The notes under the pieces are model-generated. The model had not been told where the DNA came from. It ran no database searches and was given only the letters and a program-made list of their open reading frames with translations. This document shows, in pieces, positions 7,311 to 34,241 of a DNA stretch of 64,000 nucleotides; position 1 is the stretch's first letter; every line of letters begins with the position of its first letter. A program made the position numbers and the translations under genes. The stretch comes from an uncultured bacterium (GTDB taxonomy: Bacteria; Eisenbacteria; RBG-16-71-46; CAIMUX01; WJJG01): positions 973-64,972 of the forward strand of contig CAZDKK010000018.1 in NCBI GenBank assembly GCA_964506245.1, given 5' to 3'.

Positions 7311-7323
7311 CCGAGCGCTGCGC

Positions 7324-11320: not shown

Positions 11321-11328
11321 CCACCGTG

Positions 11329-11431
11329 TGCGGATTCCGCAGTCGGCTGCGGTTTTTGCCGTCGACTCCGGGAGTTCTAGGGATGTAACCTGTCATTCTG
11401 ATTGATGTTACTCGGAGGTACGGTTTCTGCA
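11329..11431 (+). promoter_or_regulatory. sigma54 promoter with paired upstream activator-like sites (copy 3)
   Basis: GGTACGGTTTCTGCA at 11417-11431 (GG-N10-GC); palindrome TGCGGATTCCGCA (11329-11341) and TGCGGTTTTTGCC (11348-11360); AT-rich spacer. Confidence 0.7.
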
Positions 11432-11502
11432 TCCTGAGCGGGCGACTGGAAGGTCATGCGACCTGAATTCGCCCCCGCGGGCGATCAGCAAGGAGAGCCA
11501 GC

Positions 11503-12828: not shown

Positions 12829-12838
12829 GAGGGGCGCG

Positions 12839-14877: not shown

Positions 14878-14892
14878 CGTGTGGGAGGAACG

Positions 14893-16239
14893 ATGACCGC
14901 AACCCGGCTGTTCACCGCGGCGATCCTGTACGCGGCGCTGATCTGCCCCGCGCTGGCCGGTGAGCCACGCACCATCACCTTCTCCGAGGCGATCGCGATC
15001 GCCCTCGAGCAGAACACCACGCTGCGCCGCACCGAGAACGAGACGGCCCTCGACCGCATCGGTGCGCGCCAGGCCGCTTTGAACTTCCTGCCCGACCTGC
15101 GCATGAGCGTCTCGGGTTCCCGCAGATACCAGTGGTGGTCCGACGACGTCACGGACTCGTCGGGCAGCGGCTCGTCGAGCAGCGGCTCGCTCAGCGCGGG
15201 CCTCTCCTCGGGTCTGACCCTGTTCGATGGGCTGGCCAACGTGGCGGAGTTGCGTGAGGCGCGGCTGAAGGAGGAAGCCGGGCGCAAGGAACTCGACCGC
15301 GCGCGCCAAACCGTCGTGTTCCAGGTGCTGACCGGGTACCTCGCCATGATCGAAGCACAGGAACAGCAGCGCGTGCGCGAGGAGAATCTCTCGGCCCAGG
15401 AAGACCAGGAGCGCGAGGTGCAGGCCCAGGTGGACGGCGGCACGCGCCCGATCTCCGACCTCTACCAGCAGCAGGCGAACGTGGCCGCAGCGCGGCTGGC
15501 CCTGGTCGAGGCGCGCCAGACGTACGAGATGAGCTGCATCGACCTCGTCCAACTGCTCCAGCTCGACCCCAAGGGAACCTACGTCTTCGAGGTGCCCCCG
15601 CTGCCGGAGGCCGAGCTGCAAGCACCGGAGCCGGACCTGGTGACGCTCCTCGACCGGGCGCTCGTCGGGCGACCCGATCTCGATGCCGCCACGATCCGCG
15701 AGGAGGCAGCCGGGCAGCGCGTGCGGATGGCCCGGGCGGGCTACTGGCCTTCGCTGTCGCTGTCGGCCGGCTACGGCGTCAGCTACAGCGACGCCAGCAG
15801 CGGCGACGTCTGGGACCAATTCGAGGATCGGCAGTCGGGCTCGCTCGGGTTGTCGCTCTCCTTGCCCCTGTTCGACCGCCTGACCACGCGCCACCAGGTT
15901 GAACAGGCCCGGATCAACACCGCCAATGCCCGGCTCACGTGCGCGGACTTGCGGCAGGAGGTCGCGCTGCAGGTGCGCCGCGCCGTGCTCGACGTGACCG
16001 CGGCGCGCGAGCAGCTGCGCGCGGCCGATGCCGGGGAACGCGCGGCGCGCCAAGCGCTCGCGGCCAATGAGGAACGCTACGCGGCCGGCGCATCGACGCT
16101 GTTCGAGGTGTCGCAATCGCGGGCCGACTGGGTGGCCGCGGCCAGCGAGCGCGTGCGCGCACGGTACAACCTCCTGTGGCAGGAACGGGTGCTCGAGTAC
16201 TACGTCGGCACCCTCGACCCCGCGGGCCGCCTGTCCTGA
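14893..16239 (+). CDS. TolC-family outer membrane efflux protein
   Basis: Signal peptide; ITFSEAIAIALEQN; YWPSLSLSAGY; LSLSLPLFD; two heptad-rich OEP repeats. Confidence 0.9.
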   Translation: MTATRLFTAAILYAALICPALAGEPRTITFSEAIAIALEQNTTLRRTENETALDRIGARQAALNFLPDLRMSVSGSRRYQWWSDDVTDSSGSGSSSSGSLSAGLSSGLTLFDGLANVAELREARLKEEAGRKELDRARQTVVFQVLTGYLAMIEAQEQQRVREENLSAQEDQEREVQAQVDGGTRPISDLYQQQANVAAARLALVEARQTYEMSCIDLVQLLQLDPKGTYVFEVPPLPEAELQAPEPDLVTLLDRALVGRPDLDAATIREEAAGQRVRMARAGYWPSLSLSAGYGVSYSDASSGDVWDQFEDRQSGSLGLSLSLPLFDRLTTRHQVEQARINTANARLTCADLRQEVALQVRRAVLDVTAAREQLRAADAGERAARQALAANEERYAAGASTLFEVSQSRADWVAAASERVRARYNLLWQERVLEYYVGTLDPAGRLS

Positions 16240-16247
16240 GGGTGCAG

Positions 16248-17591
16248 ATGCGATCGCAGGCGACAGAGGACGGCCGCGTGCCGAGGCGGGTCTTCTCCGA
16301 AGGCGTGTGGGCGCACTGGGGTTTGCTCGTGAGTGCGTTCGCGCTGGGTGGCGTGCTGATCCTGGCCTCTTGGTCCAACTACCAAGCCGCGCGCGACGCC
16401 ACCTACGCCCTCCACCTCGGCGAGACGCGGATCTTCGAGCGCGAGATCATGGGCGCACTGCACGACAACGACGACCTGCCCGAGCCGCGCGCGCTGCCCG
16501 CGGTCCTCGACAGCTTGCTCTCTCAGCTATCGAGCGATGGCCTGCGCTACCTGGCCATGCTCGATGCCGACGGCACCGTCTCCGCCGCGGCGGGCACGCC
16601 GCTGGGTGCACCCGGCGCAACCGCAGGCCAAGGGGACGAGCCGGGCCCGGCCATGAGCACCGTGGGATCGCGCGTGCGGGTCTCCTACTTCCGCCCGTGG
16701 ATCCCGCGCACCGGACAAGAGCGGCAGCCATCTCGGCAGCCCCCGCCGGAGGACGAGCCCCGGCGCGAGCGCCGGCACGGCGGCCTCGTCTTCGAGTTCG
16801 AGCCCCGGATCGCCATCCATCTCATGGACCGCGCCGGCCAGCTCCTGGCCTTCGGGTTGGCCGCGGCCGTGCTCATGATGTTCGTGGGGGCCGTCTCGTG
16901 GGGACTGTCGCGCCGCTACGAGCGCGCCATGCGCCGTCTCGAACACGAACGCCGCTTGAGCCTGCTCGGCGAGATGTCCGCCGTGCTGGCGCACGAGATC
17001 CGCAACCCGCTCGCGTCGCTCAAGGGCCACGCGCAGCTCCTGGCCGAGCGACTGCCCGCCGAGGGCAGCGATCGCGGTAAGGCCGAGCGTGTCGTTCGGG
17101 AGGCGTCGCGCCTCGAAGCGCTGACGACCGACTTGCTGGATTTTGTGCGCCTCGGACCGCTCGATCGCCAGCCGGCGGATCCTGCGGCGCTCTTGCGCCA
17201 AGCGGTCGAGGAGGTGGACGCGGAGGGCTTCGAGCTCGATCTGGCCGGCGCGCCTGATCGCTGGCTGGTCGACGGCCCCCGCCTGCACCAGGCCCTCACC
17301 AACCTGCTGCGCAACGCGCGGCAGTCCACGCCCCCGGGCGCTCGGAGACCGGTGGCGAGCATGGGCATCGCCGGCCGCGGCCTGTTCATCACCATCCGCG
17401 ATTTCGGCGACGGCCTGCCGAAGGGGAAGGAGGACCGTCTCTTCGACCCGTTTTTCACGACGCGGGCGAGCGGTACCGGCTTGGGGTTGGCGGTCGCGCG
17501 ACGAATCGTCGAGTTGCACAAGGGCGAGCTCACCGCGGCGAACCATCCGGAGGGCGGGGCGGTGTTCCAGGTGTCGTTGCCGGGCGAGTGA
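16248..17591 (+). CDS. Membrane sensor histidine kinase
   Basis: Two TM segments; H-box LAHEIRNPL; N-box NLLRNA; DFGDG; FDPFFTT..SGTGLGLAV. Confidence 0.95.
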   Translation: MRSQATEDGRVPRRVFSEGVWAHWGLLVSAFALGGVLILASWSNYQAARDATYALHLGETRIFEREIMGALHDNDDLPEPRALPAVLDSLLSQLSSDGLRYLAMLDADGTVSAAAGTPLGAPGATAGQGDEPGPAMSTVGSRVRVSYFRPWIPRTGQERQPSRQPPPEDEPRRERRHGGLVFEFEPRIAIHLMDRAGQLLAFGLAAAVLMMFVGAVSWGLSRRYERAMRRLEHERRLSLLGEMSAVLAHEIRNPLASLKGHAQLLAERLPAEGSDRGKAERVVREASRLEALTTDLLDFVRLGPLDRQPADPAALLRQAVEEVDAEGFELDLAGAPDRWLVDGPRLHQALTNLLRNARQSTPPGARRPVASMGIAGRGLFITIRDFGDGLPKGKEDRLFDPFFTTRASGTGLGLAVARRIVELHKGELTAANHPEGGAVFQVSLPGE

Positions 17592-17637
17592 AGTCACAGA
17601 ACCAAGGCGACGCTGACCGGGGAGTGAGGCCAGGCAC

Positions 17638-18969
<1,332 letters not shown>

Positions 18970-19066: not shown

Positions 19067-22000
19067 TTACCGCACGACCAGCACCCGCGCCGACCGCTCG
19101 ACGATCTCGTCCGCCGCGCGCACGCGAGCCCGCGCCAGGTAGATGCCGCTTGGGTTCGACCGGCCGCCGTCCCACGTGTAAGCGTGGACGCCCGGCCCCT
19201 CGCTCCCCTGCTGCAGCACCGCCACCCGCCGGCCGGAGAAGTCGAACAGGCTGAGCTCGACCTCGGCCGCCGCCGGCAGGTCCAGCCGCACCGCCGCGCG
19301 CCCATCGCCCAGGGGCCGCGCCGACAGCGCCACGCTCGTAGGCACCGGCGGCTCGGGCGTGATCGGGTCTACCGGGACGATCGGGTCGGCACCCGGGTCG
19401 GGATTCGGATCTTCCCCGATCCCCGGCTCCTCCACGCTGCTCATGTCGGTCACGATCTCGATCTCGACCCGGTCGGCGTAGTAGTGCGTGATGTAGGTCC
19501 CGCTCACGCCCGGCGCGCCCGTTTCCAGCGTGAACTCGCCGCTGCGCGAGCCGCAGTTCAGGATCGTGAACCGCTGCCCGGTCACCGGGGTGTAGCCGCC
19601 CGCCGGTCGCACGACCAGCCGCCCGGAGAGGCTCGCCTGCCCGCTCACCTGCAGGTGGTCGAACTGGCCCGCGGTCGTGCCGCCGATCTCGACCCAGTAG
19701 GTGCCGTCGGCCGTCTGGGCATAGTCGCCCTGGATCGCCAGAGACCCGGTGGAGTTGGCCGTGGCGCCGGGGGCCATCCCGCCGCCGCACGTGACGTTGC
19801 CCTGCACTGTGCCGATCCCGCTCAGCGTACCACCGTTCACCGTCGCCGGACCGGGTGTGACAATGAGCGTGCCGTTGACGCTCGTGCGGCCGTAGTCGGC
19901 CTCGTCGTTGCCTGTTTGCGTGAAGGCGCCGTTGACCGTCACGGTCGAGCCCGCGCCGATCGTCAACCGGCCGGAGTCGACGGCCAGGTCGCCGGACGTG
20001 GTCAGGCTCGGCCCCCCGGTGAGGGCCAGATCGCCGGCCGACTTGATCCTGTTAAGCGAGGCCAGCACCAGGGTCGTCCCGTCGTCGCTGTAGAGGTTCG
20101 CGCTCGGGCCCTCGAGCAGAACCCGCGCGTCGAGCTGCTGGATGTTCGCGCCGAGCAGGCGCATCGTGCTATTGGGCCGCACGAGCCACGCCCCTCCGGT
20201 CAGCGTCCCGGAGGCGTAGTTGTTGATCGTGCTCGAGGTCCGGAAGACGCTCCCGCCGGTCGCTTCCGCGGTGCCGTTGTTGGTGAGGGTGGTCTGGACT
20301 TCCAGTCTGGCTCCGTTCTGGGCTCGCATGGTCCCGTAGTTGAACTTCTCCTGGTTGTGCAGCAGGAGCGTGCGCCCCGCTACATCTGCCAGGACCGTGC
20401 CGTAGTTCCGGAGATAGACCCCCACGACGCCGTCGCCGCGAATCGTGTGGCTGGCTGTTTGCGTGACCGACGCGTAGTAGTCTTCGAGCCGCGCGTCCCA
20501 CACATCCCCGGTGGTCTGCAGGACGATCTGACCGCTGCCGTCGAGCGTCTGACCATAGCCCGTGGCATAGAAGTAGGTATCGTCGCCGGTGTGATCCGAG
20601 TTGATCGTGACCGTCCCATTGTTCGTGAAGGAACACGTCATGAATACCTGCTGGCCCGCGTGGATATCCAGGCGTCCTTGATTCGTCACGTGGTCGAGGT
20701 ACGTGCCGCTGTAGCATTCCACCGCGCCGCCAGCCGCCGTCGCGAGGCTTCCCCCGTACACCCAGGTGCGAAGCAGCACCCGGCCCCCGTCGGCCAGCAG
20801 GAGGCCCGGCGCCTCCTGGTTGACCGGGTTGACGACGTTGAGCACGCCTCCCCCGGTTGCCTTGCACGTGGCATAGTTGTACAGGTTCTCGCACTGTAGC
20901 TGGAGCGTGCGGCCGTTGACGTCGGCGCTCACCAGGCCGTGGTTCCAGAGGTAGACGGTCACAACCCCCTCGCCGTGGATGGTGTGCCCCGCGCTTTGGA
21001 TCAGCGTGCCGTAGTACCCCTGGAGCCGCGCGTCCCAGATGTCGCTGCCTGACGTCTGCAGCAGAATGTCGCCGCTGCCCTGCAGATTGTGGCTGTAGCT
21101 GCTGACATAGAGGATGGCGTCGTTCCCGCTGGCCTCCGAGTTGACGGTGATCCGTTCGTTGTTTGTCGTCGTCGCACCCTGCAGCCAGAGCTGGCCTCCA
21201 CCGGCGATGGCGACCGGGCCCTGGTTCGTGACGTTGCGCAGCGTGCAGCCTCCTTGCAGGACGCGCAGGCGTCCGGCCTGAGTGCCATCCGCGAACGTCG
21301 TCCCGTTGTAGCAGTCGATCGTGCTCGTGCCGGTCGTCTCGAGCCGGCCGCCGGTCACCTCGCTCGCCAGCCGCACCGTGCCGCCGTCGGCCAGGATGCG
21401 CCCGGCAGCCCCCTGGGCGACCGGGGCGGTCACGTCGAGCGTGCCGCCGCCCACCGCCTGAAAGATCGCCTGGTTGTCCTTGCTGTCCTGGTAGATCCCC
21501 AGCGTGCGGCCGCTGACGTCGGCGCTGACCAGCCCGTAGTTGTTTAGGGTGATACCGACGACGCCCTCGCCGTGGATGGTGTGGCCAGCAGTTTGAACCA
21601 ATCTGCCATAGTAGGACGGCAGCCGGGCGTCCCAGATGTCGCCCCCGGAGGTCTGCAGGCGGATGTCGCCGCTGCCGTTGAGCGCCAGTCCGTAGTTCGC
21701 CACGTACAGGCAGGCGTCGTCGCCGCTCTGCTCCGGGTTGACCCAGATCGTCCCGTCGTTGGTGATTGCACTGCCGCACAGGAACGCCTGCTGCCCCGCT
21801 GGGACATGGAGCCGGCCCAGGGTGGTGATGTCATACAGCTGGCAGCCGGCCTGGCCCTCGATCACACCGTTGTGGTCCGAGTCGAAGGTGCCACCGGTGA
21901 CCGTGCCGCCATAGATGCGCACGATCCCCCCGTCGGCCAGGATGAGACCACTGCTGCCCTGGTTGACGGTGATGCCGTCCAGCCGCAGGATCCCGTTGTT

Positions 22001-22795
22001 GGTGGCGGCGAAAACACCGTTGTTGGTCTGCGTCTCATACGCGAGCGCCAGAACATGCCCGCTGTCGTCGGCGTCGATCCGCCCGGCATTGTGGGTGTCC
22101 AGCGTGATCCGGCCCGACCCGCGGATCGTGTGATCGGCCCCCTGGTACAGGGAGCCATAGTAGGGGGCGAGGTACGCCTCTTCCGGGTTGCCGTCGGTCT
22201 GAAGCACCAGCTCGCCCGGACCATCCAGCGCGCAGCCGTACCCCGAGATGTAGAGCCTGGCCGACCCGGTGCTCGGAAGCGAACCGACCCGAATCACGCC
22301 GCTATTGTGGGTACTGCCATTGGTGTAATACCAAACGTTGGTGGGCACGAGCAGCTGCCCCGTGGAGGCAAGCGTGAGCGCCCCCGCCAGGTACGCGTTG
22401 TGTCCCGCTAGGATCGTACCGCTGCTGTGCAGCCCCGCCGGTTGGTAGAGGTCCATGCGCCGATTGCCCAGGTTGAGCGTCGCCGCCACGTTGTTCTGGT
22501 CCAGCTGGTCGAAGCCCGCGTCGCTGTCGAGCGTGATCGTGTAGGCGCCCGATCCCGCAGGGATGATCGCGCTTTCCCCACTCTCGTTTGGAACGTCCTG
22601 CGGGTCCCAGTTGGAGGCGCTCCACCAGTTGCCCCCGCCCGGGTTGACCCAGGTGATGGTCTCGGCGCGAGATCCCCCCGTGCTGGTCACGAGCATCAGA
22701 CAGAGAATCGAGAGCGCCTGCGACCGCAGCGCGTCCCTCGTCCCCCGCCTCGCGTCCGTCCCGCTCCGCTCACTCGCCTTCGTGCAAGGGTGCAT
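19067..22795 (-). CDS. Large secreted beta-helix/autotransporter-passenger-like repeat protein with FlgD-Ig/T9SS-like C-terminal domain
   Basis: SD AAGGAGG; long signal peptide; [18 protein letters not shown]; four long internal repeats (D.WDARL..YY..(L/V).Q.A.HTI.G.GVV); acidic Pro-rich linker; tail [12 protein letters not shown]...WDGG...SGIYLAR...RVLVVR. Confidence 0.85.
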
Positions 22796-22906
22796 GTTGT
22801 CCTCCTTCGCTCACAGCGGGATGGCTCCCGCCCTGAATTCCTCTGCACCGGCCCTCGGGTGGCGGCCTACAGCACCTGCGCTGTCCGGCGCCACGCTTCG
22901 TCGGAC

Positions 22907-22940
22907 AGGATACGGAGGGAGCGTTACGCGAGCGTTACGC
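22907..22940 (-). promoter_or_regulatory. Perfect 11-bp tandem direct repeat over a putative -35 region
   Basis: GAGCGTTACGC x2 (22919-22940); minus-strand TATCCT (-10-like) at 22912-22907. Confidence 0.35.
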
Positions 22941-23170
22941 GGCGCCAGCCGCACCAGCCCCGGCGGGCGGAGATGCGGGCCGGCCACCGCGTCGGGGTTC
23001 TCACGCGCGACCCGTCGCAGGCTCGGGACGGGGGTTCCGCGCATCCGAACTGCGCCGTAAGCGATCCAGTTGGGGGAAAGCACGAGGGGTGCCTGCTGCG
23101 CCGGCGGCCCGCTCGCGAAGCGCGGCCTTGGGTCCCAGCGCAGGGTGCGCGGGCAAGGACTGGGGCAGCC

Positions 23171-24406
23171 TCAGCGGGGCTGGACGAGCACCGGGGGCGC
23201 GACGGCCGAGTCGCCTGCAGTGGATCGCGCCGAGTCGCCTGCGGCGGCCCCCGCCGAGTCGGGCGCCAGCGGAGCTCCCGGCTGCCCGCCGCCCGTCTCG
23301 CGCTGCCGCTGCGCCTGCATCAGGCGAAATCTCTCCATCCGTTCCTGGCGCTTCCTCTCGAGCATGGCATCGACCGCGCGCCGGCTGGCCTCGGTCGTGG
23401 CGGCCACCACGGCGGCCACGTGCGGGTCCTCGGGCCAGCTCGGATCCAGCGCCGGGGCCTGCCCGCTGAAGTCGACGATCTCGTTGCCGGGCGACACCAC
23501 CAGGTTCGTGACCGCGACCGCCACGCCGCGATCCCCCGAGCGATTCACGACGGCCCGGCCGAACTTGACCGGTTGCTCGTCGCGGTCCTGATGCGTGCCC
23601 GCCAGGATGACATCGATCTCGGGAATCGAGTCGGCGAAGGTCTGGATACTCACGTCGTCGAGGTGGCCGATCAGGACGAGGATGTCGGCCCTTTCCCGGG
23701 CCAGCCGCTTCGCCTCCGCCTCGTGGAGCACTCGCGCGGCCGGCGCCAGTTGCGCACCGGTGCCCTTCAGGAGCCGAGCCACCTCCCGCGTGGTCGCGAT
23801 CGGCGGCAGCACGCGCACCGCGCCCTGTGCTTCCCGCAACGCGGCGGTCGTGTTGCGCCCTTCGTCCAGGACGCTGAGGAAGCCGACGCGCACGCCGTCC
23901 ACCTCCACCACCCGGCAACGCGCGCCGACGGGCTTCCAATCCTCACCCGCGCGCCGCTCGACGTTGGTGGTGACGAGCGGCAGGGTCGATCCGAGCCCCA
24001 GCAGGCTGTCGGTCAGGGTCCACTCGGCAACCTCGTACTCGCCAAGGGCCACCGCGTCGTAGTTCAGGCGCTCCATTTCACGCCAGACCGCAACGCTCTC
24101 CCGCCACCGGACCGAACGCGTGGGGTGGAAGAATCCGCCGCCGTCGACCAGGAGGATGCGGCCCAGCGCGACGCGCTGGCTGTCGATGAAGGCGGCCCGC
24201 CGGGCCAGCCCACCCTTCTTGCCGTGTCAGCCGCAGGGGACGATCTCGCCCTGGAAGCAGCTCTGCGAGAGGATGTGGAGCGTGACGTTGTCCGCGCGCG
24301 GGACGCGCCCGTCCCCGCCCGACCGCAGCGCGCACCCGGCCAGCAGGGCGAGCATCGCCGCGGCCGCCGTGCGCATCCGCGCAGTGCAAGGCGCGGGGGC
24401 GCTCAT
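23171..24406 (-). CDS. UshA/5'-nucleotidase-fold (seleno)lipoprotein B; in-frame TGA at 24229-24227 read as Sec (C-G-U)
   Basis: ATG overlaps the upstream TGA; lipobox LAG-C; SQSCFQGEIVPCG*HGKKGGLARRAAFID..RILLVDGG continues in frame into ORF 23171..24076; 411 aa if read through. Confidence 0.85.
24179..24229 (-). other. Putative bacterial SECIS element (paralogue B)
   Basis: UGA followed by hairpin GAAGG..GGCCC-GGC-GGGCC..CCUUC; 51 nt identical to 25186-25236. Confidence 0.75.
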
Positions 24407-25464
24407 CACTGCTCCGACCCGGGCCGCTCGCGGCGTTGATTGCGCTCCCGGACCCGTCGCTCCCCCTCCGCCTTGGCCGACTCGGCCGCTTGCGCAACGG
24501 CCGCATCCTCGGCGTACTCGGGAACGAGCGTGAAGTTGAGGCCACCGAAATCGACGATCTGCCCCTCGGGGGAGATGATCAGGCGCGTCACCGAGACCAC
24601 CTGGCCGCGCGAACCGGACCGGTTGAGGATCGCGTCGCCGGCAGGCACCGGGCCGGTGTCCGCGGCCGTCATGTGCCCGCCCAGGATCACGTCCACGTCG
24701 GGCAGGAGCGACGCGTACTGCTCCATGGCCTGCGGATCGAGGTGTGCCAACAGCACGAGGACGTCGGTGCGTCCCCGGACCTCGGCCACCGCTTCCCGCA
24801 GGCTCTCTTCTGGCGGCAGCAGGCGGACGCGGTCGCCCGTGCTCCGGATCACGGTGGGGCTGAGTTGAGTGGGGCCAATCACGCCGAGGATGCCAACCCG
24901 GATCCCGTTGATCTCGATCAGCCGGTACCGTTCGCCCAGCTGCTGCCATTGGCCGTCGCGCAGCACCTCGACGTTGGTGCAGACCACCGGCAGGGGCGTG
25001 TGACGCATGAGGCTGTCGACGGTCTCCCACTGGCCGAATTCCAGCTCGCCCAGGGTCACCGCCTGATAGCCCGTGCGCACCATCTCGTTCCAGGTCAGAA
25101 CGCTCTCGAGGTAGTTGTCCCGGGCGTTGCGGTGGAGGAAGTCTCCCCCATCCACCAGGAGCAGCGGCCTCCCCTTGACCCGCGCGCTGTCGATGAAGGC
25201 GGCCCGCCGGGCCAGCCCACCCTTCTTGCCGTGTCACCCGCAGGGGACGACTTCACCCTGGAAGCAGCTCTGAGACGCGATGTACAGCTCGACGTTGGTG
25301 GGTCGCAGGCCCGAATCGACGCTCGGGCGCGCCCCCGAACCCGCGCAGCCGCCGAGCAGGAGCACGGCTGCCGAGACCGCGAGCAGGACCGCCCCGGCGC
25401 AGCCGCCCACGAGCAGCGCCCCGGCCCCCCGGCGAACCGGGCCCAGGAACCTGTGCATCTTCAT
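24406..25464 (-). CDS. UshA/5'-nucleotidase-fold (seleno)lipoprotein A; in-frame TGA at 25236-25234 read as Sec (C-G-U)
   Basis: SD GGAGGGGG; lipobox LGG-C; SQSCFQGEVVPCG*HGKKGGLARRAAFID..PLLLVDGGDF continues in frame into ORF 24406..25155; 352 aa if read through. Confidence 0.88.
25186..25236 (-). other. Putative bacterial SECIS element (paralogue A)
   Basis: TGACACGGCAAGAAGGGTGGGCTGGCCCGGCGGGCCGCCTTCATCGACAGC; G-rich apical loop starts about 25 nt after UGA. Confidence 0.75.
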
Positions 25465-25519
25465 GCTCTCCCCCTCCGGCAAGGAGCCTCCGATCGAGCC
25501 ACGGTCGCCTCGAGGCGCA

Positions 25520-27673
25520 TCACAGGTGGGTTGGACCTGGCGGCGCCCCGATGCTCTGCAGCATGCTGTCGATCACGGCCACCCGATCGGGACGCGACGC
25601 CTCCACGCGCCTGGCCTGCAGAAGAGTCTCGCGTGCGCGATCGTTCTCGCCCCGCTCGAAGAGCAGCCTGCCCAGCACGAACTGGACATCGGGGCTGTTT
25701 GGATCAATCGCCGCCGCCCGCGACAGCGTCGCGATGGCGCCATCGATGTCCTCCCCCTGCAGGTGCCAGATCCCGAGGTTGTAGAGCACCTTCGGGCTCT
25801 CGGGATCCAGTTCGACCGCTCGCTTGAAGTACGGTCCGGCTTCTTCGTGCTGCTTGTGGCGGCCGTAGATGATGCCCAGGGCGAGGAGCCCGGCAACGTT
25901 CGTCTCGTCGATTTCGAGCAGGCGCTTCAGGCAATCCTGCGCTCCGGCCGTGTCGTTCAACGCCTCCATGATCCAGGCCAACTCGTACAGCGCGGTCACC
26001 GCATGCGCCTGGAACTCGAGGATCGCCTCCGCATGGCGCCGGGCTCCCTCCAGGTCGCCCGCCGCCCGCTTGATGCGGCATAGGTAGAACTGGGCCTCTT
26101 CCTGCTCCGGATCGACCGCCACGCAGCGCTCGAAGTACTGCTGGGCGATGCGCGGATCCATCTTGAGCTGGAGCTGGGCCTTCCCCAAGTTGATCAGGGC
26201 CGCCGCATTGTCGGGATCGGCTAGGAGCACCTGTTCCAGCAGGCGTACGCCGTCGGTGGAATAGCCCATCCGCAGGTTCTCGGTCGCCACGCCGATCTGG
26301 TCGAACAGGTAGCGCATCTCGTGTGGATCGTTGAGACTTTGCACATCCTCGAGCGCCGAGGACACGCGGCTGACGCCGCGCCGCGCGCTTGCGAGGTACC
26401 CCAGCGAGGCCAGTTTCTGCAGGGTCTCGTTGTCCGCGGCGGCGACCGAGGCGCTCGCGTCCTCCGATGTCCAGCGCCGCATGGTCTCCGCGAGCTCCTC
26501 GGTGAGCCGTTCCACGGCCGCGGGCTCGCGTGCAGCCAGATCGTAGAGCTCTCCGGGATCCTCACCGACGCGGTAGTAGCGCGGCTTCGGCCCGTGGATG
26601 ATCTTCTCGTCCCCCAGGCGCAGGGCGCGCAGCGCTCCCCAACCGCACTGCAACTCGCCCACGAGCGATTCCATGTAGAGAGCCCGCGGGGCGCTCGCGA
26701 CCTGTTCGCCTCGGACCAGCGGGGCCAGCGACCGGCCCTGCACATCAGATGGGATCTCGATCCCGAGCAGGTCGAGAACCGTCGGCATGATGTCGACGGT
26801 GCCGGACAACTCCTCCAGGCGGAGACCGGCGGGCCCACCCGGCAGGCGGAAGATCAGCGGCACGCGCATGACGCTGTCGAAAACCAGCAGCGAGTGGGTG
26901 GGCTCGCCGTGCTCCATGAGCCCCTCGCCGTGGTCGGCCACGATGACGATGAGCGTGCGATCGTAGAGCTTCTGCTTCTTCAACTCGGCGAAGACGTGAC
27001 CGAGCTGTTCGTCGACGAAGGCGATCTCACCCGCGTAGGGCTCCGTGAACCGGCTGTGGTAAGGCTCGGGCGGGTTCACGGGCTGATGCGGATCGAAGTA
27101 GTGGAGCCACAGGAAGAAGGGCGCGGATCTCGACTTCCTGAGCCAATTCAGCGCGGAGCGGGTGACCAGGTTGGCCTTGCGTTCCTCGAATCCGAACTCG
27201 TTGGCTGCCCGCGTCTCTAGTTCGTCCCGCGACCAGCCCTCCGCGAGGTTGTCGTCATAGGTCGTGAATCCCTGATCGAGGTTGAAGCGTGAATCGAGCA
27301 CGAAGGCTCCGACCACCGCTCCGGTGTCATAGCCGGCGTCCTTCATGACCTCGGCCAGGGTCGTGACGTCCTCGCGCACGACGTAGGTGGAGTTGTCGCG
27401 CACGCCGTGGAAGATCGGGTAGGTCCCGGTCAGGATCGAGGTGTGAGACGGCAGGGTGATGGGATTGGTGCAGAAGGCCTTCTGGAAGAGCGCGCCCTCG
27501 GCCGCCAGCGCATCGATGTTGGGGGACGTGGGCTCGGCGTAGCCATAGCAGCCGAGTCGATCGGCGCGGGCGGTATCGATGGTCACCAACAGAACGTTCC
27601 ACCGGTCCTCGCGCGCGCAGCCGCATGCGAGGAGGAGCGCCAGGGCGGCGAGCGGTAGGCGGGAGCACTTCAT
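25520..27673 (-). CDS. Sulfatase-like hydrolase/transferase lipoprotein with C-terminal TPR repeats
   Basis: Lipobox LAC/ACG-C; NVLLVTIDTARADRLGCYG, PITLPSHTSILTG, FLWLHYFDPH, ADHGEGL.EHGE.TH; TPR-like helical repeats; ATGA overlap with the upstream gene. Confidence 0.9.
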   Translation of the reverse strand: MKCSRLPLAALALLLACGCAREDRWNVLLVTIDTARADRLGCYGYAEPTSPNIDALAAEGALFQKAFCTNPITLPSHTSILTGTYPIFHGVRDNSTYVVREDVTTLAEVMKDAGYDTGAVVGAFVLDSRFNLDQGFTTYDDNLAEGWSRDELETRAANEFGFEERKANLVTRSALNWLRKSRSAPFFLWLHYFDPHQPVNPPEPYHSRFTEPYAGEIAFVDEQLGHVFAELKKQKLYDRTLIVIVADHGEGLMEHGEPTHSLLVFDSVMRVPLIFRLPGGPAGLRLEELSGTVDIMPTVLDLLGIEIPSDVQGRSLAPLVRGEQVASAPRALYMESLVGELQCGWGALRALRLGDEKIIHGPKPRYYRVGEDPGELYDLAAREPAAVERLTEELAETMRRWTSEDASASVAAADNETLQKLASLGYLASARRGVSRVSSALEDVQSLNDPHEMRYLFDQIGVATENLRMGYSTDGVRLLEQVLLADPDNAAALINLGKAQLQLKMDPRIAQQYFERCVAVDPEQEEAQFYLCRIKRAAGDLEGARRHAEAILEFQAHAVTALYELAWIMEALNDTAGAQDCLKRLLEIDETNVAGLLALGIIYGRHKQHEEAGPYFKRAVELDPESPKVLYNLGIWHLQGEDIDGAIATLSRAAAIDPNSPDVQFVLGRLLFERGENDRARETLLQARRVEASRPDRVAVIDSMLQSIGAPPGPTHL

Positions 27674-29457
27674 CGGCTGCCAGCCTCCTGTCCGATCGGC
27701 GGCAGGTGGTCCTCGTAGATCTTGAGAGCGATGGACTCCAGAACCTTCTGCCGGATCTCGTTGGTCATCGTCTGGTAGTTGCGGCGCGCGTAGTTTTGGC
27801 GGACAAGTTCCTCGACCTCCTCGAAGGTCTTCTGTACGGGCGGCGTGTCCTTGATGAGCCGGACGATGATGATGCCCACATCCATGTAGCACAGACGCTC
27901 GGGATCGTAGACCTCGGCCATCTGGGCGTCCGCAACCTCCCCCTCCTTCAGCTTGTTGAGGATGGCGTGAAACCAGGGTCGCGGTGCCACGAGCCGGGTG
28001 ACGTCTTGGTTGTTGAGTCCCTCCATGCGGCCACCGTTGCTCGCGGAGTAGTGCTTGGAGTAGGTGCGCGCCAGCTCGGCAAAGTCCTCGCCGGCGCGAA
28101 TGCGGTCCACCAGGGCCTCGCCGCGCCGCAGGGTGCGCCAGAGAGGCTCACCCCCCTCCGGCTTCAGCAGGATCACGTCGAGATCCCGCGTGCGCAGGGT
28201 CTGGTAGCGCTGCTCGTTCTGCGCGAAGTACTCCCTGATCTCCTCTTCCGGAACCTCCGCGACGGCGCGCTGCAGACGCTCATCGAGAGCCCGCTGGTAG
28301 TTCACCTCGCGGACCGCTGCCTCGATCTGGACGGCCACGTCGGGGCGGTCCTGAAGGCCGAGTCGCTTGGCCTCCAGGGTCAGAAGCTGGCCCAGGGTGA
28401 CCTGGTCCAGGAACTTGTAGATGTTGGTGAAGACGTGCGCGTACAGATGCGACAGCTCGTGCTCACCCAGCGCGCTGCTCAGATCCTGGAGGGTGTAGCG
28501 CTGCCCCTCGATCGAGATGAGGGTCTCGTCACGCGGGATGAAAGGATCCTCCAGACGCTCGTAGTGCCGCTCGAGGCCGTGGCGGGGACCCACCTCCTCG
28601 ACGAATGCGCGCTGAGCCGCCGCGAGCTTGTCCGCATTCGCCCGGCGGCGGGCGAACTCGACCACGTCCTCGAACTTGCGGTCGAGGGCCGGCAAGCGCT
28701 CCATCATCTTGGCGATCTGGAAGCCGGTGGGGGTCTCGATGATGCCGCTGACCTCGTGGCGCTTGAGGTTCCAGACCCCCTTGATGAAGGAAGGGTGCAC
28801 GTCGTCCGTTGCGGCGAGTGTCAGCCACCCCCCGGAATTCGCGGTGGAGGACTGGGAGTGCTGGCGGGCCATCTCCTCGAAATCCGCCCCCTGCATGATC
28901 TGGCGGCGAAGCTCCTCGAGCCTCTGGCGCACCTTCTGCCGTTCGGGTTCGGGGACCGCCCCAACTTCAGCCCGCAGGAAGATGTACTGCACCCGCACCT
29001 TCTCAGGGTCCTTGTACTGCTCCGGATGCGAGTCGTACTGCTGGCGGATCTCCTCGGCGGTCGAGGCGATCTGGTCCCAGCCCAGCTCGTGCGTCATGGC
29101 CGTCTTCAGCACACCTGCCTCCGCCTGATTCAGGGCGGGCAGCATCGTGGGGTCTTCTTTCGGCGAGGGAGCCTCAGCGGCCAGGGCCTTGCGAATGGCG
29201 ATCTCCCGTATGTTCTCTATGCGCCAGTCGGCAGTGCCGCTCTCAGCCGGCGTGGGCCCTTGCCCGGCCGGGCCCGGCTGCGCTTGCTCCTTGGGGCGCT
29301 TGAAGGCGTCGAACTCGGCGCGGCGGACCTCGCCTTTCCGGAATGTGGCCAGAACCTGCGGATCCTTGGATGCGGCCGGCCTTCCGTCGCCGCCACATCC
29401 CATGCCCAAGGCCGGGCCGATGAGGAGAAGCCAGAGCCATGCGCCGGAACGCCGCAT
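27670..29457 (-). CDS. SurA/PrsA-like parvulin peptidyl-prolyl isomerase lipoprotein (two rotamase domains)
   Basis: Lipobox-like LGMG-C; VRVQYIFL...GADFEEMARQHS..STANSGGWL and GEDFAELARTYS..SASNGG; IIETPTGFQIAK. Confidence 0.85.
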   Translation of the reverse strand: MRRSGAWLWLLLIGPALGMGCGGDGRPAASKDPQVLATFRKGEVRRAEFDAFKRPKEQAQPGPAGQGPTPAESGTADWRIENIREIAIRKALAAEAPSPKEDPTMLPALNQAEAGVLKTAMTHELGWDQIASTAEEIRQQYDSHPEQYKDPEKVRVQYIFLRAEVGAVPEPERQKVRQRLEELRRQIMQGADFEEMARQHSQSSTANSGGWLTLAATDDVHPSFIKGVWNLKRHEVSGIIETPTGFQIAKMMERLPALDRKFEDVVEFARRRANADKLAAAQRAFVEEVGPRHGLERHYERLEDPFIPRDETLISIEGQRYTLQDLSSALGEHELSHLYAHVFTNIYKFLDQVTLGQLLTLEAKRLGLQDRPDVAVQIEAAVREVNYQRALDERLQRAVAEVPEEEIREYFAQNEQRYQTLRTRDLDVILLKPEGGEPLWRTLRRGEALVDRIRAGEDFAELARTYSKHYSASNGGRMEGLNNQDVTRLVAPRPWFHAILNKLKEGEVADAQMAEVYDPERLCYMDVGIIIVRLIKDTPPVQKTFEEVEELVRQNYARRNYQTMTNEIRQKVLESIALKIYEDHLPPIGQEAGSR

Positions 29458-29949
29458 GGCCCTTCGCGTGCTGCACGCAGTGGCGGCGCCAGAGCCGTCG
29501 TTCTTGACAGACAACATAAGCCTATCCCCTTCGAGTTTCCCTTGCGCGGCGCCGGGGCAGGAGATGAAGCCGAATCATCACCTCGGCGCGACGGCGGAGG
29601 AGCTGTTGACGGTACCATCTCCGCCTGGGCGCGGCCAGGTCAAACGACCGGGAAAGTAGTGCTCGGCCCCCGGTTACCGCTGCCGGCTGGGAGCTGGTTA
29701 CCCGCTCTCATCCCATAAGTTTCGGCCGCTTCGGGCCCAAGGTTATCTCCGCTTTAAGGCGCGGGGGGGCAGTGGCGAAGGGGAACGGCAGGTCGGGCGG
29801 CCAGCCGGGCGGAGAAAGGAGAAGGGCCCCGACAGCCCCGGAACCATCGATCATGGTTCCCGGACCGCGGAGCCCTCTACCGGTTTGGATCTCCCAGGCA
29901 CTAGGCCCGGGTGGACCCAAGTCCTTCTAGCCAGTCGCGAAGACTGAAA

Positions 29950-30603
29950 CTAGAACATGGCCTTGATCTGGCCCCAGCTCTGCAGCTCGGTGGGCGACGG
30001 AGCGTCCACGGAGACAGCCATGCACCAGTTGCCGGGGTAGCCGATGGACTCCATCGTGCCCCAGGAGCTCAGCCCGCACGACGGAGCCTTGATCCAGGAC
30101 GTGCCAGCGCTCGAGCTCTGGTCGAGGCCCCAACGGATACCGACGTTGGTCTGCGGCTGATTCTGGCCAAAGAAGAACCAGGGGTCGGAGACCACGATGG
30201 CCGGGCTGATGGCAGCCGTGTGGTTGCCAGCCGACCAGGGCATGCCAGCCTGACGACCGAACTCAACACCGGGCGCAGCGAAACCCGTCCAGCACACAAA
30301 GCTGAGCGCATTGATGTTGGGGGAAACGCTCGTGTAGATGTTGTACATGTGGCTGGTGATGCAGAACGGAGGCGTCGTCGTCGCCGTCACACCAACTGCC
30401 ACATCGTTCGGACCGCCGGAGGTCCCGGTGGGATTCGAGCAACCGATCCCGCGCTCGGGAATCAGGTCGCCCTGATACAGCATCTCAGGCCGGATCTGCG
30501 GTCCGCTGTACGGAACGCCCGACTGGCCCACCAGCGAGTGATCGGCGCCAGCGACGCCGGCCAGACACAGGATGCTCAGAATCGCAATGAACCCTTTGGA
30601 CAT
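29950..30603 (-). CDS. Secreted Cys-rich hypothetical protein, paralogue 1, C-terminal PTELQSWGQIKAMF
   Basis: SD GAAGGAGG; signal peptide; high similarity to 31137..31793. Confidence 0.85.
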   Translation of the reverse strand: MSKGFIAILSILCLAGVAGADHSLVGQSGVPYSGPQIRPEMLYQGDLIPERGIGCSNPTGTSGGPNDVAVGVTATTTPPFCITSHMYNIYTSVSPNINALSFVCWTGFAAPGVEFGRQAGMPWSAGNHTAAISPAIVVSDPWFFFGQNQPQTNVGIRWGLDQSSSAGTSWIKAPSCGLSSWGTMESIGYPGNWCMAVSVDAPSPTELQSWGQIKAMF

Positions 30604-31136
30604 TGTGAAGCCTCCTTCAAGCTGTGGGTGCATTGAACCACCGCAGATGCCGTGTGTGCATCGGGCCTCAGCCGCGATGAACGCACCGTGCATCGACAGC
30701 GGTCATTCTAGGAGATGACACTCCGGATGCCTTTTCCGCCTGCGGAGCGAGATGGTCGCAAGCGCCTGCTCGCGGATGGGCCTGCTCCCGAAGAACCCGT
30801 CCACCGCAGTCTGCCTGACCCTACGTCCCACTCCTGAGCCAGGACTGATTCCTGAGGCATCACCTCCTGTCGGGTCTCCCGCAGTCGGGCCTGTCGACCG
30901 CAGGACACCCTTGAGGGAATTGTAGCAGATCGGGGTGGGCCGGTGACAAACTAAAACCGCCGGGTGCGGTGGCTCTTTCCAGCCGGTTGTGGAACGAAGA
31001 TTGGTGGTCCGGCTACTGTAAGTCATTATCCCGAAAAAAGATACAAGAAAGAAGGAGCGGGCGCCGCGTTCACGACAGGCAAGTCCAAGCGGGCCAGCGT
31101 TCGGTTGGGGGGCTTCACCAATCTTCGCACCACAAC

Positions 31137-31793
31137 CTAGCGGAAACGGGCCTTGATCGAGCCCCAGCTCTGCAGCTCGGTCGGTGTCGTCCCGCCGACG
31201 GAGACGGCCATGCACCAGTTGCCCGGAAACCCGATCGAGTCGAGCGTGACGAACTGGCTGACCCCGCAGGCCGAGGCGCGGATGAAGGACTTGCCGGCGC
31301 TCGAGCCTGAATCGACCCCCCACCGCAGGCCGACGTCGGTCTGCGGCTGGTCCTGGCCGAAGAAGAAGCGGCGCTCGCTCAACGTGATGGGCGGCGAAAT
31401 GGCGACCGTGTGGCTGCCCTGGGTCCACGGAATCCCAGCCTGTCGGCCGGCCTCGGCACCCGGTGCGACAGTACCCCTCCAGCACACGAAGCTGAGGGCC
31501 GTGATGTTGGGGGAAACCTGCGTATACAGGTTGTAGAAATGGCTGGTGATGTTGAACGGCGGGGTGATAGCCGCTGTGACGCAGACGGCAACGGCATTCG
31601 GGCCGCCGGTGGCCCCGCCCCCGGTGGAGCAACCGATGCCAAACTCGGGATCCAAGTCGCCCTGGTAGAGCATCGCGGACTGCGTCATGGGCCCGCGGGC
31701 CGCAACGCCGCTCCGACCGAACCACCCGGCGTCCGCACCCGCGATTGCGGCTGTGCACAGGATGCACAGGACGGCAATGACCCCCTTGGGCAT
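31137..31793 (-). CDS. Secreted Cys-rich hypothetical protein, paralogue 2, C-terminal PTELQSWGSIKARFR
   Basis: SD GGGGAGG; signal peptide; shares MLYQGDL.PE.GIGCS, GGPN.VAV, ALSFVCW, FFFGQ.QPQT.VG.RWG.D, G(Y/F)PGNWCMAVSV with paralogue 1. Confidence 0.85.
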   Translation of the reverse strand: MPKGVIAVLCILCTAAIAGADAGWFGRSGVAARGPMTQSAMLYQGDLDPEFGIGCSTGGGATGGPNAVAVCVTAAITPPFNITSHFYNLYTQVSPNITALSFVCWRGTVAPGAEAGRQAGIPWTQGSHTVAISPPITLSERRFFFGQDQPQTDVGLRWGVDSGSSAGKSFIRASACGVSQFVTLDSIGFPGNWCMAVSVGGTTPTELQSWGSIKARFR

Positions 31794-32137: not shown

Positions 32138-33010
32138 ATGAAGCGCTGGGGGCTCTCGATGTGGCTTGCCGTCGTGGCGGCTGGCCTTCTCACCCTTTCG
32201 ACCGCTGCTGCCGATGACGGGGCCGCTCAGGCCTATCGGGAAGGCGAAGCGCTGCTCCAGCAGGCTCGCTTTGAAGAAGCCTTGGCCTCGTACGACCGCG
32301 CCGCGCAGCTCGATGCCGCGCGCCAGGAGTACCGCGAGGCCGCAGCGATTCTGAAGCGCGTGGTGCAACTGCGCGATCAGCTCACGGACGAGCCGGACCC
32401 GGCGCAGTGGGAACGCGTCGCGCGCGCGCTGCGCGCCTACTACCGGGGCGAGGGGATCTTGACCGCATCGCTCGCGCTCGACCGCCAGATCCACGAGCGC
32501 CTGGGCACCGCCGAGAGCGCCGAGATGCTCGCCGACACGCAGCTCGAGCTCGGCCAGACCGCCGAGGCCCGTGCGCTGCTGGCCGGGCGCACTGACCTCG
32601 ATGCGCGGCCCGGGGCCCGCCTGCTGCTGGGCATCGCGCAAGCCCGCGCGGGAGCGACGGCCGAAGCGCGGGCCATCGCGCAGGGTGTGGCGCTGCCGGC
32701 CGACGCGAGCGCGGAGGACCGCGTGCGGGCCGCGCGGCTCCAGGCCATCGTCGGGGACCGGACGCAGGCGCTGGCCCTGTTGGCCGCCGCGTTCGAGGCC
32801 ACGCCGCCCAGTCAGCTCGAAGCGGCCCGGGCGCGCGTGAAGGCCTGCCCCGACTTTGCCGGGCTCAACGGAGGCGAGGAGTTCGCCAAGGTCCTGGCCA
32901 CGCAGTCGAAGGTGGCGGAGTCGGGCTGCGGCAAGGCAAAGACGTGCGGCGGCTGCCCCAATCGCACCGCGTGCAGCAGTGCCTCGGCCGCAACAGCCAA
33001 GCCGAAGTAG
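32138..33010 (+). CDS. Secreted TPR/helical-repeat protein with C-terminal Cys cluster
   Basis: Signal peptide; TPR-like AYREGEALLQQARFEEALASYDRAAQLD; tail CGKAKTCGGCPNRTAC. Confidence 0.75.
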   Translation: MKRWGLSMWLAVVAAGLLTLSTAAADDGAAQAYREGEALLQQARFEEALASYDRAAQLDAARQEYREAAAILKRVVQLRDQLTDEPDPAQWERVARALRAYYRGEGILTASLALDRQIHERLGTAESAEMLADTQLELGQTAEARALLAGRTDLDARPGARLLLGIAQARAGATAEARAIAQGVALPADASAEDRVRAARLQAIVGDRTQALALLAAAFEATPPSQLEAARARVKACPDFAGLNGGEEFAKVLATQSKVAESGCGKAKTCGGCPNRTACSSASAATAKPK

Positions 33011-33086
33011 CCGAGGGCTCAGCACCTCGGCCAGGACAATCGATCGGATCTAGCCCGCGGGCACCGTGCGCCCTGGCGGGAGGCGC

Positions 33087-34241
33087 ATGCGCAGATCGCT
33101 GCAATTCGGCTTCCTGGCGCTGACGTTGGTCGCCGTCTTCATCGTGCGCGGCAGCGCCGAGCGCTGGTGCCCGTTCGGCGGCCTCGAGGCGCTCCACACC
33201 TACGCCACCGAGGGCAATCTGCCCTGCTCGCTCGGCGTCTCCAACTTCTACGTCCTCGGCGCGGTCCTGCTGATGACCCTGATCCTGCGCCGGGCGTTCT
33301 GCGGGTACATCTGCCCCATTGGCACCGTGTCGGACTGGGTGCGCCAAATCGCCGGGCGCGCGGGGTTGCGCCCCGTGCGGGTGAGCGCGGGCTGGGATCG
33401 GTGGCTGTCGTTCCTGAAGTACCCGATCCTGGGGCTCCTCTTGTGGCTGACCTATCGGGCGGGCGAGCTCATCTTCCGCGGATTCGATCCCTGCTATGCG
33501 CTCATCAGCCGGCACGGCGAGGACATCACCGCGTGGGCCTATGTCGTCTCGGGCGCAATCCTGGTCGCGAGCCTGGTGGTGGTCCTGCCCTTCTGCCGCT
33601 GGCTGTGTCCGCTGGCGGCCGCGCTGCAGCCCTTCTCGCGCGTCGGCCTCGCCCGGGTGCGTCGCGACGAGGCGGCCTGCACCGACTGCGGGCGGTGTGC
33701 GGCGGCGTGCCCGATGCGGATCCCGGTGGATCGGGTCCGGGAGGTGACCGAGGCGCGCTGCACGGCCTGCCACTCGTGCGTCGATGCCTGCCCGGTCGTT
33801 CGCCCGCGCGCGCCGCTCGCGTGGGGCCCGCCCGCGCGCTGGGGACGCGCCTGGCCGCGCGGGATCCTGGCCGCCGTCCTCCTGGCGCTCGTCGGCGCAG
33901 CGGTGGCCGCGGCGCTGTTCAGCCCGATGCCGTCCTTCACCTACGAGCGCGGGGAACGCCCGGGCGCCGTCTCGACCTTGGACCTGCAGGTGGGTGACCT
34001 CACCTGCCGCGGTCGCGCGAACCTGCTGGTCTACTTCCTCGACCGCGATGACGAGCTGGCCCTGCCCGGCTACCTGAGACTCGAAGCCTGGCCCGCCCCT
34101 GGGAGCGGGCGGGCGCGCATCAGCTTCGATGCGACCCGCTGCGACGATGCGCGCGTGCGGCAGGCGATCACCGAGCCCTACTTCAACCTCGCGCAGAACC
34201 AGTGGCACGCATCGCCCTTCGTGATCGAGAGAGGGCGCTAG
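33087..34241 (+). CDS. NapH/MauN/YccM-like membrane 4Fe-4S protein with C-terminal HMA-like domain
   Basis: WCPFGG, FCGYICPIG, FCRWLCPL, CTDCGRCAAACP, CTACHSCVDACP; LDLQVGDLTCRG (HMA-like). Confidence 0.85.
   Translation: MRRSLQFGFLALTLVAVFIVRGSAERWCPFGGLEALHTYATEGNLPCSLGVSNFYVLGAVLLMTLILRRAFCGYICPIGTVSDWVRQIAGRAGLRPVRVSAGWDRWLSFLKYPILGLLLWLTYRAGELIFRGFDPCYALISRHGEDITAWAYVVSGAILVASLVVVLPFCRWLCPLAAALQPFSRVGLARVRRDEAACTDCGRCAAACPMRIPVDRVREVTEARCTACHSCVDACPVVRPRAPLAWGPPARWGRAWPRGILAAVLLALVGAAVAAALFSPMPSFTYERGERPGAVSTLDLQVGDLTCRGRANLLVYFLDRDDELALPGYLRLEAWPAPGSGRARISFDATRCDDARVRQAITEPYFNLAQNQWHASPFVIERGR

Follow-up and report, generated by a model that had tools for sequence, protein, structure and literature searches.

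UshA-like selenoproteins with a CxU motif (U denoting selenocysteine) have been listed since the 2008 analysis of the Global Ocean Sampling data (PMC2398784) and appear again in reviews from 2022 and 2026 with no function assigned (PMC9312934, PMC13188914); for UshA-like family 2 the motif is given as CxxU (PMC13188914). Two proteins of the CxU kind, here named Sec1 and Sec2, are encoded within the DNA analyzed in this work, a 64-kb window (approx. 69% GC) of contig CAZDKK010000018.1 from an uncultured bacterium of the Eisenbacteria lineage. Their genes lie in a 12.7-kb run together with genes for a parvulin-type foldase, a sulfatase-like enzyme carrying tetratricopeptide repeats (TPR), two secreted proteins named after a WGxIK motif, and a large surface protein. 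An earlier note on this DNA had presented the foldase, the sulfatase-like enzyme and the two selenoproteins as an envelope system for which no pathway had been described, a claim that fails for the selenoproteins because their kind has been on record since 2008 and is modeled in NCBIfam as NF041198. When compared to loci from other genomes and metagenomes (labeled L001 etc.), the run was found likely to be made up of two extracytoplasmic modules, each conserved independently of the other and brought together specifically in this lineage, followed by an unrelated surface protein.

Between 31793 and 19067, every gene is encoded on the minus strand and shows the high GC content at third codon positions seen in real genes. 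Module A (31793–25520) comprises WGxIK protein 2 (WG2; 31137–31793, 218 aa), a predicted secreted β-sandwich protein with a signal of the signal peptidase I type and the C-terminus ...PTELQSWGSIKARFR; WGxIK protein 1 (WG1; 29950–30603, 217 aa), with an ATG at 30603 in a reading frame open to 30693; a lipoprotein of approx. 595 aa with a parvulin-type peptidyl-prolyl isomerase (PPIase) domain (PF00639), resembling PrsA, SurA and PpiD (27670–29457); and a lipoprotein, hereafter sulfatase-TPR, combining a Thr-nucleophile domain of the alkaline phosphatase superfamily (PF00884) with C-terminal TPRs (25520–27673). Module B (25464–23171) consists of two lipoproteins matching NF041198, namely the UshA-like Sec1 (24406–25464, 352 aa, motif SQSCFQGEVVPCG-U-HGKKGGLARRA) and its paralog Sec2 (23171–24406, 411 aa), which ends in a low-complexity tail. 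The four lipoprotein genes are as tightly coupled as previously claimed: the parvulin stop and the sulfatase-TPR start overlap in ATGA (27673–27670), 55 nt (25519–25465) separate sulfatase-TPR from Sec1, and the Sec1 stop and Sec2 start overlap in TGATG (24408–24404). Sec2 is followed, after a gap of 375 nt, by the co-oriented gene for the large surface protein, which lies outside both modules.

Gene neighborhoods anchored on sulfatase-TPR were collected from 79 genome loci. The closest orthologs (52–59% identity) all occurred in the arrangement WG, parvulin, sulfatase-TPR (L008, L010 and L011), and a search anchored on WG returned the same trio in L087, L170 and L171. In L089 the order was instead parvulin, sulfatase-TPR, WG, the WG homolog being only 33% identical. 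The trio thus recurs in seven other loci, from Eisenbacteria, Thermoanaerobaculia and unclassified metagenome-assembled genomes, with the parvulin ortholog adjoining sulfatase-TPR in each of them and doing so twice in L011, where two complete WG/parvulin/sulfatase-TPR cassettes stand in tandem (5945–15260). The second WG-like protein of that locus (10548–11318) has diverged strongly (hhalign probability 89%, E 2e-6) but retains the CG, G.W and PVEL motifs, ending in ...VPVELLGVSID. A 226-aa gene following sulfatase-TPR in L171 was considered as a second WG copy and rejected, being unrelated by BLASTP. The WGxIK proteins had been described as flanking a four-gene system; their recurrence beside both parvulin and sulfatase-TPR instead makes WG a core member of module A. 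The pairing of the other two members, both part of the system proposed earlier, recurs more widely still: of the 79 sulfatase-TPR loci, 19 (Acidobacteriota, Fermentibacteria, Verrucomicrobiota and Gammaproteobacteria) had a parvulin-like gene with the same orientation within 1.5 kb. No selenoprotein was found beside the trio in the six loci screened (L008, L010, L011 and the gene tables of L087, L170 and L171); in L089, an uncharacterized open reading frame (ORF) of 66 aa adjoins WG.

Neighborhoods anchored on the selenoproteins showed a different layout, with a divergent GATase_4-FlgD_ig gene followed by a gene encoding DUF362 and a 4Fe-4S ferredoxin domain (Fer4), and then by the selenoprotein genes Sec-a and Sec-b. 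A Sec pair or a single copy followed the DUF362-ferredoxin gene in about 12 independent loci (L001/2, L003/4/L094, L005/L090, L006, L007, a JGI contig, L091/92, L093, L096, L112, L113 and L124), the tandem pair being conserved in L001, L003, L005/L090, L006, L091 and L094. Neither parvulin nor sulfatase was present in these DUF362-linked loci, and no DUF362 gene was found in the window. The junction from sulfatase-TPR to Sec1 was seen again only in two close relatives, each represented by a short metagenome contig (L100 and L101; sulfatase-TPR 76% and 69%, Sec1 69% and 83% identical to the window, respectively), and the window arrangement therefore belongs to a sub-lineage. In this lineage the Sec pair comes immediately after module A, and the two are probably transcribed together. 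Homologs of the large surface protein were not found beside either module in other loci, apart from one match to its C-terminal domain in L006.

The selenoprotein genes each contain one in-frame TGA, at codon 77 in Sec1 (25236–25234) and codon 60 in Sec2 (24229–24227), and these are the sole in-frame stops across the 39 genes of the window. Genome-wide recoding of TGA was rejected because TGA is also the commonest genuine stop, ending 21 of the 39 genes, so that the code is standard. The motif VPCG-TGA-HG is present in Sec1, Sec2 and all orthologs, with TGA at the same codon and the coding sequence conserved on both sides. Database homologs of Sec1 have all been called as truncated ORFs beginning after the TGA; reading through the stop yielded 11 full-length copies in six genomes, all with TGA and with an invariant surrounding block, SQS[CS]FQGE..PCG-U-HG..GGLARRA. 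A metagenome scan extended the family to 68 C-x-U copies, every one of which has the TGA.

Downstream of the TGA, 51 nt are identical between Sec1 and Sec2, the flanks differing at synonymous sites. These nucleotides include a hairpin on the minus strand (GGC.GGCCC-GGC-GGGCC GCC; 25198–25217 in Sec1 and, with the same sequence, 24191–24210 in Sec2) that begins 19 nt after the U of the UGA in Sec1. RNAalifold recovered a consensus hairpin with the same starting point across the family, GG[C/U].GGCCC-GGC-GGGCC[G/A]CC, whose 5-bp core stem pairs in every one of the 63 distinct sequences. Double changes that keep the pairing occur at one pair from GC to UA, CG or AU, at another from CG to UA (seven times) and in the lower stem again from CG to UA (13 times); in the copies inspected they are co-occurring synonymous codon changes. 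Across the 63 sequences, 91.9% of hairpin cells are paired compared to 85.7% after shuffling, and the covariation score is 0.235 compared to 0.134, with none of 500 shuffles reaching the observed value. We read this hairpin as a selenocysteine insertion sequence (SECIS) element, and Sec1 and Sec2 as true selenoproteins, in agreement with the earlier claim. As the hairpin with its synonymous covariation encodes the GGLARRA peptide, this peptide is probably constrained at the RNA level as well, by the SECIS element.

Sec1 and Sec2 share 44–46% sequence identity. Against NF041198 ("UshA-like (seleno)protein, PCGU") they score 99.4 and 79.5 bits, both below the cut-off of 275, and the alignment covers only positions 23–271 of the 519 in the model; against NF049981 ("family 2") the scores are 35.2 and 38 bits (cut-off 140), confined to the motif region. 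Sec1 falls just short of the Pfam Metallophos cut-off (21 compared to 21.5 bits), Sec2 has no Pfam match, and PF02872, the C-terminal domain of 5'-nucleotidases, was not matched in either protein. The pair is a short, Eisenbacteria-specific branch of the cataloged UshA-like CxU kind. When aligned to a canonical family member, GNHEF is changed to GE.EF, while Sec1-type copies retain the Asp of GGD and two His; in Sec2-type copies the GGD Asp and the His residues are lost (DGGG, GYL, GTHQ). We further infer that the first metal motif, D-x-H, has been replaced by SQSCFQG. With its metal-ligand motifs degenerate, a canonical dimetal hydrolase is unlikely. A Cys homolog (P0022, EPCGC) and a selenocysteine homolog (L114, 7142–8443) are each fused to a multiheme cytochrome c (Cytochrome_C554, NapC/NirT-like), and, along with the neighboring DUF362-4Fe-4S proteins, these fusions suggest redox chemistry at a Cys/Sec centre, not hydrolysis. 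Members of a distant branch of the family (L102, L103, L106, L108, L111, L114, L126, L129, L133 and L134) are encoded directly downstream of a gene for an LptD-like outer-membrane protein, and some of them have lost the motif Cys (P[VITS]G-U). The tail of Sec2 is encoded in part by a 24-nt tandem repeat of 2.4 copies (23205–23261; GDSA-type repeats).

Lipoprotein signals were assessed with a PROSITE PS51257-style pattern on the N-termini. The pattern matched parvulin (Cys21), sulfatase-TPR (LLAC, Cys17/19), Sec1 at Cys40, beyond the usual range of 15–35, and Sec2 in the canonical form LAGC (Cys25, or Cys15 if the start is Met11). Further upstream in Sec1, a VGGC (Cys22) is not matched because of Arg12; its signal peptide (25345–25464) shows an apparent duplication of the hydrophobic segment with two GGC lipobox-like sites (Cys22 and Cys40), where orthologs have one. 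WG1, WG2 and the large surface protein gave no match. As the signal peptides in orthologs of all four proteins likewise end in Cys, the lipobox-like signals noticed earlier are borne out as far as pattern and orthologs can tell, and the four proteins are predicted to be extracytoplasmic with lipoprotein-type signals.

The WG proteins (WG2 is 65% identical to WG1) have no match in Pfam or NCBIfam. WG1 homologs form 80 clusters of approx. 217–230 aa, none with Pfam domains, and the family as a whole is rare: clustering at 50% identity gives 130 clusters for it in a set of 1.84 billion proteins; the WG core also occurs as the C-terminal module of larger secreted proteins containing DUF4215, P-domain, CARDB or FlgD_ig. 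Most homologs lie on contigs of approx. 0.9–1.5 kb, which may reflect the short median of the collection or assembly breaks caused by paralogs or high coverage. The AlphaFold2 model of WG1 (pLDDT 79) predicts a β-sandwich at residues 40–200 and a low-confidence tail at 204–217. A fold search with this model gave no match at E < 1e-3, returning only generic jelly-roll or lectin-like similarity, with the lectin-like domain of Cwp84 as the best weak match (TMq 0.5–0.56). An invariant P-[VT]-E-L opens the tail, which ends in SWGxIKxxF(R) in some homologs, including those named Eisenbacteria, or in x-F-x-V-[ED] in others, including one named Thermoanaerobaculia. Two Cys are invariant in the family alignment and a second Cys pair is present or absent as a unit; a gene for a VKOR-thioredoxin-DsbA fusion immediately upstream of WG in L087 (5724–7499) fits with disulfide formation in the WG protein.

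The parvulin protein matches PF00639 (Rotamase) in two stretches with 86.4 bits (cut-off 21.7), and its closest solved relatives are PrsA and SurA, yet it lies below every equivalog cut-off (PpiD 49.9 compared to 493 bits, SurA 38.5 to 394, PrsA 33 to 343). Sulfatase-TPR matches PF00884 with 167 bits, PF01663 with 58.7 bits (cut-off 23) and many TPR families. In place of the formylglycine motif C/S-x-P-x-R it has T-L-P-S-H (ITLPSH at residue 72; S-G-P-S-R at the aligned position in 7p24), and DT takes the place of the metal motif DD; approx. 90 homologs retain both T-x-P-[SA]-H and DTxRAD. The designation "Thr-type" given to this enzyme before is therefore correct. As the nucleophile motif corresponds to the Thr of the NPP type, the protein is predicted not to be a sulfatase in the enzymatic sense but a phospho-ester hydrolase or transferase.

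Starting from the operon-like gene packing of a single genome, the earlier note proposed that the four lipoproteins together form one periplasmic machine for the maturation or modification of exported proteins. The gene coupling, the lipoprotein-type signals on all four proteins and the recurrence of the sulfatase-to-Sec1 junction in L100 and L101 are in line with this proposal, but it is contradicted by the approx. 12 selenoprotein loci that have a DUF362-ferredoxin and neither parvulin nor sulfatase, by the trio loci (seven, of which six were screened and none had an adjoining selenoprotein) and by the quite different contexts of the wider selenoprotein family, downstream of LptD or in cytochrome fusions. 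With the modules separate in approx. 19 loci and joined only in L100 and L101, the four-gene set fails the gene-neighborhood test that the note itself had set; at family level a single machine is largely refuted, and for the window lineage, the only place where it could still apply, we regard it as very unlikely. What endures of the earlier reading is the extracytoplasmic setting, the selenoproteins, the Thr nucleophile and the parvulin/sulfatase unit, while the single four-gene machine does not. A different explanation dissolves module A itself: the parvulin would be a general foldase, sulfatase-TPR a phosphate-scavenging or lipid-modifying phosphoesterase, and WG an abundant secreted protein located upstream by chance. 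This would account for the many phyla in which parvulin and sulfatase-TPR are adjacent without WG (e.g. L048 and L063), for L088, where WG stands beside a sulfatase lacking TPRs with no parvulin, and for terminator-like hairpins after each WG gene, which suggest separate transcription (30956–30970 with a T-run, 3' of WG2; 29825–29845 with a T-rich tail, between WG1 and the parvulin gene; both on the minus strand). These hairpins come from a consensus scan only, in which the number of terminator-like sites in the region was not above the shuffled expectation; no σ70-like promoter sites were found, and matches to the σ54 consensus were not above chance (19 observed, 20.5 expected). Against chance placement, every locus with enough flanking sequence in the orthologous sulfatase-TPR subclade has WG, which is kept despite the rearranged order in L089 and in the duplicated, co-diverged cassette of L011, and the rarity of the WG family makes repeated chance adjacency unlikely. 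We therefore consider this second explanation unlikely, if less so than the single machine.

With respect to the selenoproteins, the in-frame TGAs could in principle be real stops in split or decaying genes, or sequencing errors. Rfam returned no SECIS or other RNA family, either at the gathering threshold or at E-values up to 10, and the single-sequence fold energy downstream of the TGAs, in a GC-rich context, is no better than that of shuffled sequences, so that support for the hairpin comes from comparison across the family. Such stops are nevertheless hard to reconcile with 68 copies, from many genomes, that share the codon position of the TGA and are conserved in their coding sequence on either side of it, with a conserved and covarying downstream hairpin, and with curation of the family as a selenoprotein (NCBIfam; PMC13188914), and we consider this explanation to have next to no chance of being correct. 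Some observations do weigh against the interpretation favored here, of two modules of which the second encodes redox selenoproteins. The window contains none of selA, selB, selC and selD and no tRNA-Sec (no tRNA was found in the 64 kb); the equivalence of SQSC with the first metal motif was drawn by inspection and lies outside the hhalign and phmmer alignments; and the junction of the two modules is kept at 69–76% sulfatase identity with operon-like packing, which leaves room for a functional link in this lineage. The approx. 25 loci compared show two modules that travel independently.

Taking the two-module interpretation further, the WG protein, of which the module has one or two copies, would be exported by the Sec pathway and then oxidized, forming one or two disulfides. 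At the membrane surface, the parvulin could serve as a foldase or holdase for it, and the TPR domain could dock a partner, hypothetically the PVEL tail, while the Thr-phosphoesterase domain would add or remove a phospho-ester group on the WG protein or on an envelope polymer bound by it. Module A thus most likely handles WG export and folding, and may include a phospho-ester step on WG or its ligand. A bolder version, in which the trio is a cargo-specific periplasmic maturation cassette whose TPR domain captures the PVEL tail while the enzyme installs or removes a phosphoethanolamine- or phosphoglycerol-like substituent and the parvulin holds the cargo, with the Sec pair having joined its transcript as redox partner in the window lineage, is in our view a long shot. 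In module B, a degenerate N-terminal 5'-nucleotidase fold with the invariant P-C-G-U loop would provide a periplasmic Cys/Sec redox centre, supplied with electrons by carriers, as suggested by the cytochrome c fusions in relatives and the DUF362-ferredoxin in other Eisenbacteria. Such recurrent electron-carrier partners suggest that a degenerate phosphoesterase scaffold here serves redox chemistry, and the subfamily of Sec1 and Sec2, being short, lipoprotein-type, tandem and equipped with a well-supported SECIS element, offers a clean test case for UshA-like selenoproteins. Though rare, the trio is robustly conserved within both Eisenbacteria and Thermoanaerobaculia, and the pairing of parvulin with phosphoesterase-TPR reaches several other phyla. 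Modification of the WG protein by the enzyme, should it occur, would represent a new type of protein modification in the periplasm; otherwise, the cassette would be a matter of ordinary envelope housekeeping.

The remaining genes of interest in the window surround the two modules. The large repeat-rich surface protein (19067–22795, minus strand, 1242 aa) has about four internal repeats of approx. 190 aa and no Pfam match besides its C-terminal domain, which had been claimed before and matches FlgD_ig narrowly (27.7 bits, cut-off 27). On its far side, a run that ends just before this gene (11503–18969) encodes a MacAB-TolC-type efflux operon (HlyD, ABC ATPase, MacB/FtsX permease and OEP), followed by a histidine kinase and a σ54-dependent response regulator. 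On the plus strand beyond module A, a 290-aa secreted TPR-like protein with a terminal Cys cluster (CGKAKTCGGCPNRTAC; 32138–33010) is followed by a NapH/MauN-type membrane polyferredoxin (33066–34241; TIGR02163 75 bits, below the cut-off), and these two genes possibly encode a periplasm-facing electron-delivery pair approx. 8 kb from the selenoproteins. Further away (48151–54044), the gene for a B12-binding radical SAM protein is followed by those for a surface protein composed of Malectin, CotH kinase and FlgD_ig domains and for a PMT_2-type glycosyltransferase.

The closest known relatives of Sec1 and Sec2 are the UshA-like selenoproteins of NF041198 and COG0737 (Zhang & Gladyshev 2008), with which they share P-C-G-U followed by GGLARRA, an N-terminal metallophosphoesterase fold of the 5'-nucleotidase type, a TGA with a downstream hairpin and an extracytoplasmic location. 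They differ from these in their length of only approx. 350–410 aa, in lacking the PF02872 domain and in scoring far below the model cut-off; their group has in addition an Eisenbacteria-specific SQSCFQGE signature, and its members are always lipoproteins, usually in a tandem pair with a DUF362-ferredoxin as the usual neighbor. NF049981 family 2 (a model of 262 positions) likewise represents a short UshA-like selenoprotein, but its motif is CxxU rather than CxU and the scores are far from its cut-off. To the dimetal phosphoesterases 5'-nucleotidase, UshA and SoxB, the pair is related through a homologous N-terminal domain (2z1a, E 2.5e-15; SoxB model, 53 bits), and Sec1 partly retains GGD, the motif IV His and GGH; in contrast to those enzymes, the selenoproteins have GExE in place of GNHE, and the second paralog also lacks the bridging Asp and the His residues. 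A literature search combining Eisenbacteria with selenocysteine returned nothing relevant.

For module A, comparisons can be made for each of the enzymes. As in PrsA, SurA and PpiD, the parvulin domain or domains are flanked by chaperone-like regions, with a lipoprotein anchor as in PrsA, but the protein is approx. 595 aa long and its gene belongs to a dedicated cassette that also encodes a Thr-phosphoesterase-TPR. Sulfatase-TPR resembles the type I formylglycine sulfatases in fold and overall sequence (many sulfatases in the PDB at E 1e-25 to 1e-35) and departs from them in the nucleophile motif and in having DT instead of DD. With NPP (PF01663) and the Thr-type enzymes LtaS, EptA and PafA it shares T-x-P-x-H and an above-threshold PF01663 score, whereas its best match is PF00884, it has a lipoprotein anchor rather than transmembrane helices, and it carries approx. 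250 aa of C-terminal TPRs; searching the literature for Thr-nucleophile enzymes of the alkaline phosphatase superfamily with TPRs gave nothing relevant. At the level of the system, the nearest parallel is the PEP-CTERM/exosortase system with the PPIase EpsD and the TPR lipoprotein PrsT, where a PPIase and a TPR lipoprotein similarly occur beside secreted proteins with a short conserved C-terminal motif. A link to this system, prompted by one UniRef WG homolog named "PEP-CTERM", was rejected on model scores (TIGR02925 27.7 compared to 108.9, TIGR02917 91.3 compared to 312.2); the loci examined contain no exosortase, and the PVEL tail has no basic cluster and, by eye, no transmembrane stretch. 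As far as the searches show, the trio brings together known enzyme and chaperone families and one unannotated protein family, and as a cassette is undescribed in the literature searched. Its jelly-roll protein, which lacks annotation and has an invariant PVEL tail, makes it more novel than the Sec pair, which belongs to a selenoprotein kind already cataloged.

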